DNA of 64,000 bases. Origin: Hyphomicrobiales bacterium. GTDB taxonomy: Bacteria; Pseudomonadota; Alphaproteobacteria; Rhizobiales; Aestuariivirgaceae. The translations under genes and the position numbers were made by a program. The notes under the pieces were generated by a model. The model had not been told where the DNA came from, made no database searches, and saw only the letters and a list, made by a program, of their open reading frames with translations. This document shows positions 28,566 to 35,496 of this stretch, one piece after another; within the stretch, counting starts at the first letter, position 1; each line of letters opens with the position of its first letter. The stretch is taken from NCBI GenBank assembly GCA_031418195.1, contig JANOXA010000016.1:4594-68593 (forward strand). Direction: 5' to 3'.

Positions 28566-29771
28566 CTATCCGGCCGTGTTGGCGGGCTTGCGCAGTGTCA
28601 TCGTGAGCCAAGCCAGCATTGCCAGTGCTACCACCAGTGGCGGAAACAGGGCGTAAGGCACTGAGTGCCAGCCGAAGTTGGCCAACAGTTGGCCTGAACT
28701 CAAAGAGGCAATGGCCATCAGCACGGAGATGCCGAAGTCATTGGCGGCTTGCACTTTGCCGCGCTCGGTGGGGCGGTAGCAATCGGTGAGCATGGTGGTG
28801 GCACCGATAAAGCCGAAATTCCAGCCGAGACCCAGCAGGATCAAGGCAACCGAGAAATGGGCGAAAGTGATGCCGGCCAGCCCTGCCCCGGCTGCCAGGA
28901 CCAAGATGATCATGCCGACGGCGGTGATTTTTTCGGCGCTGTAACGCTTGATCAATTGGCCGGTAAAAAAGCTTGGCACAAACATGGCCAGTACATGCCA
29001 TTGGATGACCCAGCTGGCATCATTCGTGGTAAAGCCGCAACCGATCATGGCCAGGGGCGCTGCCGTCATCATCAGGTTCATCAGGGCATAGGCGATCATG
29101 GCGCAGGCCATGGCGGTGACCAATTTGGGTTGGCGCAAAAGCTCTGGCCAGCTACGGGCCGGGCCTTCGGTTTGGTCTATTGATGGCGGGGCCAATCGCA
29201 AGGTGAATATCACGGCCAGATTGCCAAGGGCGAGCAGTCCCGCGGCGGCATAAGAACCGGCAAAGGTGAAAGGCGCAAAAAGATCGCTGGTGCCCATGAC
29301 AATCAGGGTGCCAGCAATGGCCGCCACCACACCGCCGGTCAGCACCCAAGAGATCGCCAGCGGTTTGGTTGATGGGCTGGCATTTTCAGCAGCGGCAAAG
29401 CGGTAGAAGCCAGAGGTTGCCTGAAACACACCAAACAAGGCGGTCGCAAAACAAAACGCTGTGAAATGGCGGTTGAAAATTGCCCAGACCGCCAGCGCCG
29501 CCCCTGCCATGCAGGCGATGGCACCAAACTTGAAGATGGGCGAGCGGCCAAGTTTTTGCATCAGCAATGAAGCCGGGATTGTGGTGATCAATGCGCCCAA
29601 AACAAATGTTGTTATCGGCGCAGTGGCAAGGCCGGGTGTGGGCGCAATGTCATTGCCCACCAATGCAGCCGTGGCGAAAACGAGTATCGTGCAGCAGGAG
29701 TAAAGCGCTTGGGCAAGCGCCAGCAGAAGAATGTTGCGCTTGGCTTCGACATCGGTTGGCGCGGTGGTCAT
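28566..29771 (-). CDS. MFS transporter
   Basis: 401 aa, ~12 TM; GWNFGFIGATTMLT; ATGA overlap with nusB. Confidence 0.9.
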   Translation of the reverse strand: MTTAPTDVEAKRNILLLALAQALYSCCTILVFATAALVGNDIAPTPGLATAPITTFVLGALITTIPASLLMQKLGRSPIFKFGAIACMAGAALAVWAIFNRHFTAFCFATALFGVFQATSGFYRFAAAENASPSTKPLAISWVLTGGVVAAIAGTLIVMGTSDLFAPFTFAGSYAAAGLLALGNLAVIFTLRLAPPSIDQTEGPARSWPELLRQPKLVTAMACAMIAYALMNLMMTAAPLAMIGCGFTTNDASWVIQWHVLAMFVPSFFTGQLIKRYSAEKITAVGMIILVLAAGAGLAGITFAHFSVALILLGLGWNFGFIGATTMLTDCYRPTERGKVQAANDFGISVLMAIASLSSGQLLANFGWHSVPYALFPPLVVALAMLAWLTMTLRKPANTAG

Positions 29772-30241
29772 GGGGCAAATTCTTCCGGCCTGCGAGAACG
29801 CGCCAAAGTGTTCAATGCGCCATTGATGAATTTTGGCTCGGCACCATCCTCAAAAAACGCTGCGGCAACGTTGACGTATTCATTGATGGCGACCTTGGCT
29901 GGCACGTTGTCTTTGAAGAATATCTCAAATGCAGCTGCACGCATGATGGCACGCACTGTGGCATCAAGGCGATGCAGCGGCCAATCCTTGTCGAGTACCT
30001 TGTCTACCGATGGATCAAGAAGCATCTGCTCGCGCACTGTGCCTTCAACAACTTCGCGCAAATGCTTGTAGTCGGCGCCACCTACATCACCATTGTCAAA
30101 ATCATCACCTTGCACCCGCGATGAAAACTGCGCGAGGGTTTCGCCAAGATCGGCACCTCCGATATCAAGTTGGTAAAGGGCTTGTACAGCGCCAAGCCGG
30201 GCAGCAGAACGGGCAACGGGCGAGCGGCGGGGGGTTGTCAT
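29768..30241 (-). CDS. nusB: Transcription antitermination factor NusB
   Basis: RSAARLGAVQALYQ...RLDATVRAIMRAAAFE...VAINEYV...FINGAL; start taken at ATG 30241. Confidence 0.95.
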   Translation of the reverse strand: MTTPRRSPVARSAARLGAVQALYQLDIGGADLGETLAQFSSRVQGDDFDNGDVGGADYKHLREVVEGTVREQMLLDPSVDKVLDKDWPLHRLDATVRAIMRAAAFEIFFKDNVPAKVAINEYVNVAAAFFEDGAEPKFINGALNTLARSRRPEEFAP

Positions 30242-30410
30242 TGGCGAACAGGTACTTTCAAACAGCGGGAGAACTGGCAATCAGTGGATTGGCTCGAATA
30301 GACGCAGATTGCTTCCAAGGCAATGTCAGTTCACGCATGGGTACGGTGATCTTCTTGCACTTTGCCGATGGCGAGACTAAATCGACATGGCTTGGCAATT
30401 TCGCCAAGCG

Positions 30411-30537
30411 TTATTCTCAGGGCGGGGTGCAAGTCCCCACCGGCGGTAAAGCCCGCAAGCGGCCTTTCGAAAGTCAGGTGTCAGCAGATCAGGTGTAACT
30501 CCTGGGCCGACGGTAAAGTCCGGATAAAAGAGAATGG
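30411..30537 (+). ncRNA. FMN riboswitch (RFN element)
   Basis: ttctcagggcggggtgcaagtccccaccggcggt...agcagatcaggtgtaactcctgggccgacggtaaagtccggataaaagagaa, the canonical RFN conserved blocks. Confidence 0.95.
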
Positions 30538-30627
30538 GACAGTACGAAAAATCAGCCCGCGATTGCGGCTGACTGGCGTGTTGTTTTCATGTCGTCCTGA
30601 TTCATGTATTGAAGAAAGGATTTTCAC

Positions 30628-31548
30628 ATGAATCAGATTTCCCTCCCCAAAAACCGGGCAATGCTCGGTGCACTTTACATGGTGCTGGCAGGCATTACTT
30701 TTGCCATCATCAACGCCATCACATTTGTCATTACCGCAAGCGCAGATTTTGGCGGCCTCGGCTTCAAGCCCCAGTCTGATACATTCTGGCAATATGCCAT
30801 TGCACTTGTCATCTCCCTGCCCTTTCTCTGGCGCAGCGGAACCTTGTCGTTCAAGACCAAACAACCCCTACCCCATATCATTCGTGTTGTTTTGTCGGCG
30901 GCGGGCTTGCAAGCCTTTGTCATGGCAATTTCCAAGGGCGTTCCCATTTGGCAGGTTGTGGCGCTCACCATGACAGCACCGTTTTTTGTGTTGATTGGCG
31001 CGAAATTGTTTTTGGGTGAGAAGGTCACTTCCAATCGCTGGATCGCATCAATTGTCGGGTTTGCCGGCGCCTTGATTGTAACCAATCCGTGGTCGGAGCA
31101 ATTCAATGTGTTTTGGCTGCTGCCGGTTGTTGCTGCGATGTTATGGGGCGCTGCCTCCCTGTTGACAAAATATCTCAGCCGCAGCGAAACGCCGGAATCG
31201 CTGACGACGTGGCTTCTGCTTTTGCTCACGCCCATCAATCTGTTTTGGTCAGTCGGCGTTGGCTTTGAAGTTCCGACAGGCAATATCCTGTGGCTGTTGA
31301 TCATCGGAGGATTTCTGGTGTTCGTGGCGCAGTATCTGCTGAGCAAATCCTATGCATCGGCGGACGCCAACTTCGTGCAACCGTTTGATGATCTCAAGCT
31401 GATCAGCAATGTGCTGATCTACGGGATATTCTTTGGCTACTGGCCATCCGGTCTCATCTGGCTCGGCCTGGCCATGATCATGGCGGCTTCGATATTCTTG
31501 CTGATGCAAGAGAGTCGCAGGAAAGACCTGCAACCTGAAACAGCGTGA
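30628..31548 (+). CDS. ribN: DMT/EamA family transporter, RibN-like riboflavin importer
   Basis: Ten-TM EamA pair directly under an FMN riboswitch; RibN of Rhizobiales has this architecture. Confidence 0.75.
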   Translation: MNQISLPKNRAMLGALYMVLAGITFAIINAITFVITASADFGGLGFKPQSDTFWQYAIALVISLPFLWRSGTLSFKTKQPLPHIIRVVLSAAGLQAFVMAISKGVPIWQVVALTMTAPFFVLIGAKLFLGEKVTSNRWIASIVGFAGALIVTNPWSEQFNVFWLLPVVAAMLWGAASLLTKYLSRSETPESLTTWLLLLLTPINLFWSVGVGFEVPTGNILWLLIIGGFLVFVAQYLLSKSYASADANFVQPFDDLKLISNVLIYGIFFGYWPSGLIWLGLAMIMAASIFLLMQESRRKDLQPETA

Positions 31549-34293: not shown

Positions 34294-34406
34294 AATAGAC
34301 CCCCCGGTCTGGTTAAGGCCTTCATGAACAAGCAATGTTGGGTAGAAGTCAACCCAATTCATCGGCACAGGTGCCCAGGATTAACTGCGCATCAAGGAAT
34401 TGGATT

Positions 34407-34733
34407 TCATCGCTGCAAGGCTTGCATGACTGCATTGGGAATTTTTCCAATGACTTCGATATAGGCTTTTGCTGCAGCGTCCGGCTCCTTGCGCCCCTGC
34501 TCCCAGTCCCGCAAGGTTCCCAGAGGTATGCGAAAGCGTTCTGCAAAATCTTCCTGCGAAAGCCGCATCACCCGCCGCACAATGGCGATGCGCGGTGTCC
34601 GCTTCATCCGCTTGAAGTCTTCGTCCGTCAACGGCGGGTTGTCCGGATCTGTCAGGGCGCTGGCATGGGCCTCCTCATCCGTCATGGCATCATAACGCGT
34701 CCAATCAAACTTAGTGGGTTCGTTCTTGATCAT
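34407..34733 (-). CDS. XRE-HTH antitoxin with a BrnA-like N-terminus
   Basis: DWTRYDAMTDEE...DPDNPPLT, then LSQEDFAERFRIPLGTLRDWEQGRKEPD. Confidence 0.85.
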   Translation of the reverse strand: MIKNEPTKFDWTRYDAMTDEEAHASALTDPDNPPLTDEDFKRMKRTPRIAIVRRVMRLSQEDFAERFRIPLGTLRDWEQGRKEPDAAAKAYIEVIGKIPNAVMQALQR

Positions 34734-35001
34734 GATATTCCCTTATTTCCGGTGCGTCTGGCCTTCGCGCGGAAATGATACGGTATCGCTGTCCGCGCAA
34801 CGTGTACAAAACGGCCAGAAGCCGATTTTCCGAAAACCCGATCATGATTGATCTGTCTTCGCCATAGTCTTCCCGGCCATCCATGAAGTCAACCGCATAA
34901 CAATCGTTGAAAACTTCCGTTGCTGCCAAAAAGCTGATGCCATGCTTGGCCAAATTGGCTTCAGCCTTGTCGTCATCCCATTCGAAGTGCTCATTTTTCA
35001 T
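34711..35001 (-). CDS. BrnT family toxin (DUF497)
   Basis: FEWDDDKAEANLAKHGISF...DYGEDR...YRIISARR. Confidence 0.92.
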   Translation of the reverse strand: MKNEHFEWDDDKAEANLAKHGISFLAATEVFNDCYAVDFMDGREDYGEDRSIMIGFSENRLLAVLYTLRGQRYRIISARRPDAPEIREYHDQERTH

Positions 35002-35034
35002 TTGTACTGCTACGCCGTACCTACGTCAAGCCTG

Positions 35035-35496
35035 TTATTTCTCGTCTTCCGCACTCAACTCCCCGATAAGTTCCTCAAAATCCTTGGCTTCGTGGAAGTT
35101 TTTGTAGACGGAGGCAAAGCGCACATAGGCGACATCGTCAAGATTTCGCAGGCCTTCCATCACCAGTGCGCCGATTTGTTCTGACTTGATTTCGCTTTCG
35201 CCCAAGCTTTCTAATTGGCGCACGATGCCTGATACCATGCGCTCGATGCGCTCGCTCTCCACGGGTCGTTTGCGCAATGCCACGGCAACGGACCGGGCCA
35301 GTTTGTCCCGGTCAAAGGGTGTACGGCGGCCCGAGCGTTTCAATACGCTGAGCTCGCGCAATTGCACACGCTCGAATGTGGTGAACCTGCCGCCACAATC
35401 GGCGCAGACCCGCCGGCGGCGGATAGCCGAAGAATCCTCGGTTGACCTGGAATCCTTTACTTGCGTATCGGCATTGCCGCAGAAGGGACAGCGCAT
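35035..35496 (-). CDS. nrdR: Transcriptional repressor NrdR
   Basis: MRCPFCG...DSR...[19 protein letters not shown] zinc ribbon plus ATP cone; [10 protein letters not shown]. Confidence 0.97.

Follow-up and report, generated by a model that had tools for sequence, protein, structure and literature searches.

A riboswitch-linked RibN-family importer candidate in place of ribDEH in a Hyphomicrobiales lineage predicted to be auxotrophic for riboflavin

The Rhizobiales carry genes for riboflavin synthesis in the arrangement nrdR-ribDEH-nusB-rfnT, to which no riboswitch is attached (PMC6362234) and which is credited, as cited there, to Vitreschak 2002. The RfnT-like CalT proteins, which carry MxxxM and HxxxM motifs, import copper and not riboflavin (PMC6362234). 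Uptake of 3H-riboflavin in E. coli has been reported for RibN (PMC6362234), and the RibN proteins of Rhizobium leguminosarum, Ochrobactrum anthropi and Vibrio cholerae are attributed to Garcia-Angulo 2013, as cited in a survey from 2015 (PMC4418817). This survey counted as RibN those proteins that align to the R. leguminosarum prototype with >38% identity and a coverage of at least 80%, scored as auxotrophs the organisms in which lumazine synthase and riboflavin synthase were absent, and found RibN solely in Proteobacteria in which the biosynthetic pathway is present too (PMC4418817, Table 2). Loss of the rib operon together with auxotrophy has been shown by growth in the free-living Caulobacter segnis and Caulobacter sp. 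RL271 (bioRxiv 10.64898/2026.09.14.750808). Here we analyze a window (the whole stretch of DNA under study, 64 kb in length) from a metagenome-assembled genome (MAG) of a Hyphomicrobiales bacterium, in which a flavin mononucleotide (FMN) riboswitch and a candidate RibN-family importer lie between nrdR and nusB, where ribD, ribE and ribH would be expected from the Rhizobiales operon.

Since RibN, FMN riboswitches, the nrdR-ribDEH-nusB-rfnT operon and auxotrophy by rib loss are already known, no part of this locus is new in kind. New are the importer cassette in the place of the deleted genes, a RibN-type protein as the sole predicted flavin source and a make-or-take turnover that involves two unrelated rib operons. 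The observations as a whole are best explained by a riboflavin auxotroph that relies on uptake only and carries a riboswitch-RibN importer at the site of the deleted ribDEH genes, a reading that we consider likely.

The emptied slot and the missing riboflavin pathway

The source genome is a MAG of 3.67 Mb in 142 contigs with a completeness of 97.75% and a contamination of 3.74%, and the genes of the window were called from an open reading frame (ORF) listing combined with Pfam, NCBIfam and Rfam family scans. Read along the minus strand, glyA and nrdR are followed by a gap of 4.7 kb and then by nusB and a major facilitator superfamily (MFS) gene. The 4.7-kb slot between nrdR and nusB is occupied by the FMN riboswitch, an EamA transporter gene, an ORF of 121 amino acids, a porin gene, a glycoside-hydrolase-like gene and a BrnT/BrnA pair (Table 1). 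The MFS gene directly follows nusB, and its translation contains MNLMM (MxxxM) and HVLAM (HxxxM), by which this flank is the RfnT-like CalT of the nrdR-ribDEH-nusB-rfnT operon. The adjacency of nusB and the MFS gene is kept in congeners with and without a rib operon in the slot, and glyA-nrdR is collinear across all relatives mapped.

For comparison, 80 alphaproteobacterial loci were fetched with NrdR and mapped by tblastn. About 70 of the 80 have the order nrdR-ribD-ribE-(ribBA)-ribH-nusB, and in Filomicrobium the NCBIfam assignments read glyA-nrdR-ribD-ribE-ribBA-ribH-nusB-thiL. The four nearest relatives (loci L003-L006, NrdR identity 82-87%) carry an EamA gene in the slot that points away from nusB. 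In three further loci (L049 from a Devosiaceae MAG, L043 and L046), nrdR directly adjoins nusB with no rib genes between them. Within the slot under study, a lenient tblastn search with Rib proteins of the same genus recovered neither ribD, ribE or ribH nor a remnant of them, the best match (E = 0.046, 24 bits) being at the level of chance. The one ribD-sized ORF in the slot, of 354 amino acids, was ruled out as ribD and is an Rv2525c-like glycoside-hydrolase-like protein. Aligned to the operon-keeping congeners, the nucleotide sequence is homologous up to the end of nrdR (~35060), and the homology is regained within nusB (from ~30220-30245). The locus hence resembles the Rhizobiales operon in its nrdR and nusB-rfnT(calT) flanks, which are co-oriented and collinear with those of the operon-keeping congeners, and in that the ancestral operon of these congeners also has no riboswitch; it differs from it in that ribD, ribE and ribH are gone and the flanks are split by 4.7 kb including three genes on the opposite strand. 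Judged by these alignments, ribD-ribE-ribH is cleanly deleted between nrdR and nusB. The ancestral layout would have been glyA-nrdR-ribD-ribE-ribH-nusB-rfnT(calT), a riboswitch-transporter cassette facing away from nusB would have come to stand in place of ribD-ribE-ribH, and accessory cargo would have built up between this cassette and nrdR.

This arrangement also bears on the expression of nusB. Read-through from nrdR is unlikely because three plus-strand genes separate the two, so that transcription of nusB would have to start in the divergent intergenic region that it shares with the riboswitch. It is a sound inference from the gene directions that nusB needs its own promoter there; a search of this region for a consensus sigma-70 site was negative. 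The start of nusB is likely the in-frame ATG at 30241, which leaves ~167 bp to the riboswitch.

Profile searches of the whole assembly for ribH, ribE and the ribB and ribA domains gave no match, while the same searches were positive in 10-14 of 14 control genomes. The sole match to ribD (32 bits, contig C114) turned out to be TadA. The ribBA gene, which congeners with the slot operon carry at a further locus, is absent from the assembly too, and tblastn searches of the assembly with the Rib proteins of Filomicrobium and of both operon types of the same genus returned no gene and no fragment. ribF, on the other hand, is present (TIGR00083, 218.6 bits, G000:C103:53940-54824). The assembly contains two FMN riboswitches, each upstream of a copy of the transporter gene, one in the window and one on contig C9.

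The second of these operon types, hereafter type B, consists of an FMN riboswitch followed by ribD-ribE-ribBA-ribH and lies directly after the gene of a class II 3-deoxy-D-arabino-heptulosonate 7-phosphate (DAHP) synthase in nine species (G001, G004, G007, G008, G014, G044, G057, G069 and G070), two of which, G044 and G070, count among those most closely related to the present genome. The DAHP synthase gene of the latter (G000:C114:36886-38283) shares 90-91% identity with the copies in these two species, and no type B operon is found at this site: ~380 bp of sequence lead to the next conserved gene (start 38667) on the unbroken 90-kb contig C114. At a second type B site, known from G076 and G018, the flanks lie here on two contigs, each of which runs on for 3.4-4.5 kb without rib genes. 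The type B operons of G076 (L131) and G018 (L089) have ribD, ribE and ribH, no detectable ribBA and a long branch in the operon tree. Since the nrdR-nusB slot, which lies inside a 108-kb contig, and the usual site of the second operon are both intact on long contigs, the absence of the rib genes is not explained by an assembly gap.

Downstream of the DAHP synthase gene, its last 40 nt are repeated 241 bp further on with 95% identity (G000:C114:38215-38500). Between the two copies stands a GC-rich insert of ~200 bp that has inverted ends and resembles a small mobile repeat carrying a replacement 3' end. The duplicate was rejected as a scar of a deletion, as the operon-bearing congeners do not share it and it brackets this repeat-like insert.

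The genotype of a riboflavin auxotroph, with ribA, ribB, ribD, ribE and ribH missing and ribF kept, is thus well supported by the genome sequence. With these five genes missing, flavin would have to come from uptake alone, and the organism is predicted to be auxotrophic; it probably depends on the riboflavin of its neighbours. The initial annotation of the locus had placed it in a conserved Rhizobiales operon slot devoid of ribD, ribE and ribH and of any remnant, and had assigned to this slot an opposite-facing FMN riboswitch with a RibN-like transporter. The alphaproteobacterial loci and species of the same genus, the chance-level tblastn result, the full-model RF00050 match and the two EamA domains agree with it on each of these points, as do the family scans on all gene positions and orientations and on the nusB-riboswitch spacing, given as ~170 bp. 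Its prediction of a riboflavin auxotroph is matched by the genotype, five rib genes being absent from an assembly of 97.75% completeness; a rib pathway elsewhere in the genome, the outcome that it had named as speaking against this prediction, was searched for with a negative result, ribF alone being retained.

The importer candidate and its FMN riboswitch

The transporter of 306 amino acids contains two EamA stretches (PF00892) and belongs to the drug/metabolite transporter (DMT) superfamily. It shares 39% identity over 297 of its 306 residues (97%, E = 4e-60) with a homologue from V. campbellii, a reference placed by synteny and distinct from the R. leguminosarum prototype. The two proteins are reciprocal best hits, scoring 151 bits where the next paralogue scores 74. 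The V. campbellii gene sits between a porin gene and a gene for a glutaredoxin-domain protein, the arrangement porin-ribN-glutaredoxin that has been reported for V. cholerae ribN (PMC5312566). When a plasmid collection was searched, the best matches were from second chromosomes of Vibrio and an Aeromonas chromosome (38-41% identity, 95-97% of the query), generic DMT proteins in this collection reached only 25-30%, and no alphaproteobacterial RibN above 30% identity was found in it. A homologue with 38% identity is encoded in a Devosiaceae MAG (L049, L140) behind an FMN riboswitch of its own, at a locus other than nrdR-nusB.

The protein resembles the RibN importers in its size of about 300 residues, in its two EamA domains, in the 39% identity that it shares over 97% of its length with the Vibrio RibN orthologue identified by synteny, and in the FMN riboswitch upstream, as PMC4418817 describes for alphaproteobacterial RibN, and we regard it as a RibN-family importer candidate whose direction and substrate we infer from this relationship. 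The likeness extends loosely to the V. cholerae porin-ribN-glutaredoxin operon (PMC5312566), as a gene for an outer-membrane beta-barrel protein follows the transporter gene here. Unlike the RibN importers of the 2015 survey, it is predicted to be the one route by which riboflavin is obtained, and it stands in place of deleted rib genes. The transporter would import riboflavin, which RibF would convert to FMN and flavin adenine dinucleotide.

The riboswitch matches RF00050 over model positions 1-138 of 138 with 111.3 bits (gathering threshold 66.2) and was recovered again in the search of the genome. Its aptamer lies on the strand of the transporter gene and is separated by 88 nt from the ATG of the latter. 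Between them begins a perfect 11-bp inverted repeat, with arms at 30597-30607 (CUGAUUCAUGU) and 30626-30636 (ACAUGAAUCAG) and a duplex energy of -16.2 kcal/mol. In minimum free energy (MFE) folds, the AUG and the two codons after it fall within the second arm, and the hairpin encloses the Shine-Dalgarno sequence GAAAGGA (leader z = -3.5). The inverted repeat is kept, with G-U changes, in most of the riboswitch-bearing orthologues. These folds suggest an FMN-dependent blocking of transporter translation: when FMN is plentiful, it would bind the aptamer and the hairpin would bury the Shine-Dalgarno sequence and the AUG, turning translation off, and when FMN is scarce the start site of the transporter would be free. 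A hairpin after the aptamer at 30553-30572 was considered as an intrinsic terminator, but its U-tract is poor and distant, so that translational control is preferred. With a canonical aptamer and, after it, a hairpin occluding both the Shine-Dalgarno sequence and the start codon, the leader is like those Gram-negative FMN riboswitches that act on translation initiation. It differs from them in that the first three codons (AUG AAU CAG) form part of the sequestering hairpin, for which reason they are conserved at the nucleotide level, and that the anti-sequestor is not clearly defined.

Three states of the rib genes in the genus and the history of the slot

We searched 61 genomes of the same genus for the transporter, ribH and the FMN riboswitch and then mapped the loci. 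In 24 of them the order glyA-nrdR-ribD-ribE-ribH-nusB-MFS is found (state A, ribH 93-106 bits); apart from G067, none of these has an FMN riboswitch or the transporter. The ancestral operon is thus present within the genus itself, which was the outcome of the comparison with sister taxa that the initial annotation had proposed. In a further state (E), the slot has no rib genes, and the transporter is present in 27 genomes; wherever a locus of this state reaches a flank, the transporter lies between nrdR and nusB and points away from nusB. The type B operon (ribH 130-151 bits) was found in 14 of the 61 genomes, nine of them together with the transporter. Six congeners that have no ribH and no transporter were rejected as a further state, since nusB is missing from them too and their locus is incomplete.

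The transporter occurs without ribH in 17 of the 61 congeners, ten of them at least 95% complete, and each of the 17 has a single FMN riboswitch, located in front of the transporter. Riboswitch and transporter are both kept in every congener that has no rib genes. Among the type B carriers, in contrast, the transporter lies 61-95 bp from nusB with no room for a riboswitch in G004, G007, G008 and G069 (L107, L116, L118 and L124), is reduced to a fragment of 21% of the gene in G057 (L139, 1108-1299) and is entirely absent from G014, G044, G054 and G070 (loci including L136, L137 and L138). This reciprocal pattern of transporter and rib operon is the best indirect evidence that the transporter would supply riboflavin. 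The in situ swap from synthesis to uptake that had been proposed for the locus accordingly stands in part: the slot has lost ribDEH and holds the importer candidate, but 14 of the 61 congeners carry a second rib operon elsewhere.

Nor is the replacement of the slot particular to this genome. In species trees from NusB and NrdR and from NusB, NrdR and the MFS protein, the slot-replaced genomes form one clade (support 100/99) of at least 30 sampled species, nested among state A lineages in both trees, from which it follows that ribDEH was deleted from the slot once. All 13 type B carriers that could be placed fall in this clade. Within it, the presence of type B changes at least eight times, at least six of these changes being forced by well-supported branches, and the early-branching lineages (G008, G054 and G055/G076) all carry type B. 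The type B operons form a single group remote from type A (branch length 2.1), a distance from the ancestral type by which type B was certainly acquired, and their tree partly follows the species tree. The transporter tree conflicts with the NusB and NrdR tree for several species (e.g. L105-L107 and L113), which suggests exchange of the cassette among congeners.

The locus of G067 combines nrdR-ribD-ribE-ribH, the riboswitch-transporter cassette and nusB (L132 = G067:C2:296001-312000, 4050-8400). It was rejected as an ancestral intermediate because the three-protein tree places G067 in the other, operon-keeping clade (99/99); the cassette therefore reached the same position a second time and can coexist with ribDEH. 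Frameshifts in G067 also affect glyA and nrdR and were attributed to sequencing errors and not to decay.

Contig C9 of the present assembly (G000:C9:1-21039; L083 = 1-9000) is collinear with ~20 kb of the window region on contig C16 and carries copies of the riboswitch, the transporter gene, nusB and the MFS gene. The 121-residue ORF and the porin are missing from C9, and a gene for a pyridoxal phosphate-dependent decarboxylase lies between its riboswitch and nusB. An element of ~200 bp between a hydrolase-like gene and the transporter (G000:C9:1210-1445) recurs on at least nine other contigs with 80-90% identity, and the sequence of C9:1-141 is found unchanged at the ends of a dozen contigs, which probably reflects a k-mer overlap left by the assembly at a repeat. 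C9 most likely stems from a co-binned sister population.

As to the order of events, the history that we hold somewhat more probable than its alternatives taken together is a single replacement in an ancestor that had both type B and the importer, followed by a later loss of type B here. The slot would have been replaced once, in the ancestor of the clade, which would also have held the foreign riboswitch-controlled ribD-ribE-ribBA-ribH operon beside the class II DAHP synthase gene; later lineages would have kept either the foreign operon or the importer, and this lineage would have dropped the former. The auxotrophy here would then probably have come from this later, separate loss of the type B operon. 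The order rests on parsimony, and the shared site would equally result if type B had spread among congeners by homologous recombination. It is thus conceivable, if rather unlikely in our view, that, in a stricter form of the history given by the initial annotation, the replacement of the slot was itself the change from synthesis to uptake and at once made the clade ancestor auxotrophic, and that type B was regained later and spread by recombination at the DAHP synthase site without ever reaching this lineage. Such a course would fit the certain acquisition of an operon so distant from the ancestral type (branch length 2.1), its six to eight or more changes on the species tree, the recombination among congeners visible in the partial conflict of the transporter tree, the entry of the cassette into a different background in G067 and the empty DAHP synthase site here, which holds no remnant of an operon or riboswitch. 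It would leave to be explained why all early-branching lineages of the clade carry type B, why type B lies at exactly the same site in nine species from different subclades and why its sequences form one group with a tree partly matching that of the species, all of which argue for type B in the ancestor and for its later loss here.

Several points weigh against an uptake-only auxotroph as such. The genome is a MAG of 142 contigs with 3.74% contamination, and a rib operon on an unbinned contig is possible; one known site of the foreign operon (that of G076 and G018) falls across two contigs; and C9, with 21 kb, repeats the locus at 83-87% nucleotide identity, so that the bin contains contigs of two related populations. 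The organism could accordingly be a prototroph whose rib operon went unassembled or unbinned at a completeness of 97.75%, the auxotrophy being an artefact of the MAG. We consider this very unlikely, since the assembly would have had to miss all of five genes, which relatives carry at two or three separate loci, two of the rib loci are intact and empty on long contigs, and the same genotype recurs in ten congeners at 95-100% completeness. Concerning the transporter, its substrate, its direction and the action of the riboswitch are read from sequence, the comparison was made with the Vibrio orthologue only and not with the experimentally defined R. leguminosarum RibN prototype, and the proposed anti-sequestor pairing is weak (-10.5 kcal/mol) and absent from the MFE folds. 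EamA/DMT proteins have many substrates, homologues are labelled 'DMT permease' or 'SAM (S-adenosylmethionine) uptake transporter' in the source databases, and variant FMN riboswitches are described as controlling efflux pumps (PMC6298564), so that the protein might export flavins or carry another metabolite while flavin is obtained otherwise. This appears extremely improbable given that the riboswitch is canonical (111 bits, full model), that the best named relatives are RibN orthologues of Vibrio and Aeromonas, well apart from the generic DMT proteins at 25-30%, and that the gene is kept together with its riboswitch in every rib-less congener, the riboswitch being lost or the gene degraded only beside a rib operon.

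Accompanying genes and implications for the genus

The features of the locus are collected in Table 1. The 121-residue ORF between transporter and porin has no match in Pfam or NCBIfam. In G070, a close relative without the transporter (L135 = G070:C81, 20-1323), homologues of this ORF (73%) and of the porin (38%) adjoin nusB; hence, the pair is not tied to the importer. The Rv2525c-like gene adjoins nrdR in part of the clade (L003, L004, L101-L104, L124, L136 and L138). The BrnT/BrnA pair occupies the identical position in L006 and L116; the ORF preceding brnT on the map (34407-34733) gave only weak HTH_3 and MqsA/NadS-type matches and is regarded as a candidate antitoxin by its place beside brnT.

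Table 1. Features of the locus around the nrdR-nusB slot, with positions in the 64-kb window.
Feature	Position	Strand	Evidence and remarks
MFS gene, RfnT-like CalT	28566-29771	-	MFS_1, 98.8 bits; overlaps the nusB stop codon
nusB	29768-30280	-	TIGR01951, 115.6 bits; downstream flank of the ancestral operon
Divergent intergenic region	30281-30408	no strand	predicted site of the nusB and riboswitch-ribN promoters
FMN riboswitch aptamer	30409-30539	+	RF00050, 111.3 bits
Expression-platform hairpin	30597-30636	+	MFE folds; arms CUGAUUCAUGU and ACAUGAAUCAG
EamA transporter, RibN-family riboflavin importer candidate	30628-31548	+	two EamA domains
ORF of 121 amino acids	31712-32077	+	between transporter and porin
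Putative beta-barrel porin (BBP2_2), cargo	32180-33301	+	PF10082, 47.8 bits; co-directional with the transporter
Rv2525c-like glycoside-hydrolase-like protein, cargo	33304-34368	-	PF08924, 83 bits
BrnA-like helix-turn-helix (HTH) antitoxin candidate, cargo	34407-34733	-	assigned by position and overlap with brnT
brnT, ribonuclease toxin, cargo	34711-35001	-	PF04365, 88.6 bits
nrdR	35035-35496	-	TIGR00244, 173 bits; opens the ancestral nrdR-ribDEH-nusB-rfnT operon
glyA (serine hydroxymethyltransferase)	35507-36910	-	NF000586, 632 bits; upstream flank of the operon

When compared to the Caulobacter auxotrophs, the rib operon was here likewise lost within a genus whose other members keep it, with repeated loss and/or gain across the genus, and cross-feeding is expected in both. 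The present case differs in that an importer candidate and its regulator are identified at the site of the deletion and two non-homologous rib operons are involved; the auxotrophy of Caulobacter was shown by growth, whereas that of the present lineage is predicted from its genes.

For the genus as a whole, we give an even chance to a stable make-or-take polymorphism in riboflavin supply that is built from three interchangeable modules, namely the ancestral unregulated ribDEH between nrdR and nusB, the foreign riboswitch-controlled ribDE(BA)H at the DAHP synthase gene and the riboswitch-RibN cassette at nusB. It would entail at least six to eight switches between prototrophy and auxotrophy, with the importer losing its riboswitch and then being lost itself where synthesis is kept. 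For cultivation, the genotype implies that this uncultured freshwater or soil lineage of the Hyphomicrobiales should need added riboflavin. For the transporter family, the locus would be a case of a RibN-type importer as the only flavin source, which the 2015 survey did not find in Proteobacteria. With close species differing in whether they make or take riboflavin, and with both the modules and the places where they sit identified, the genus offers a good natural setting in which to study the gain and reversal of a vitamin auxotrophy, and, if the polymorphism is real, it would be one in which the Black Queen dynamics of a vitamin may be measured.

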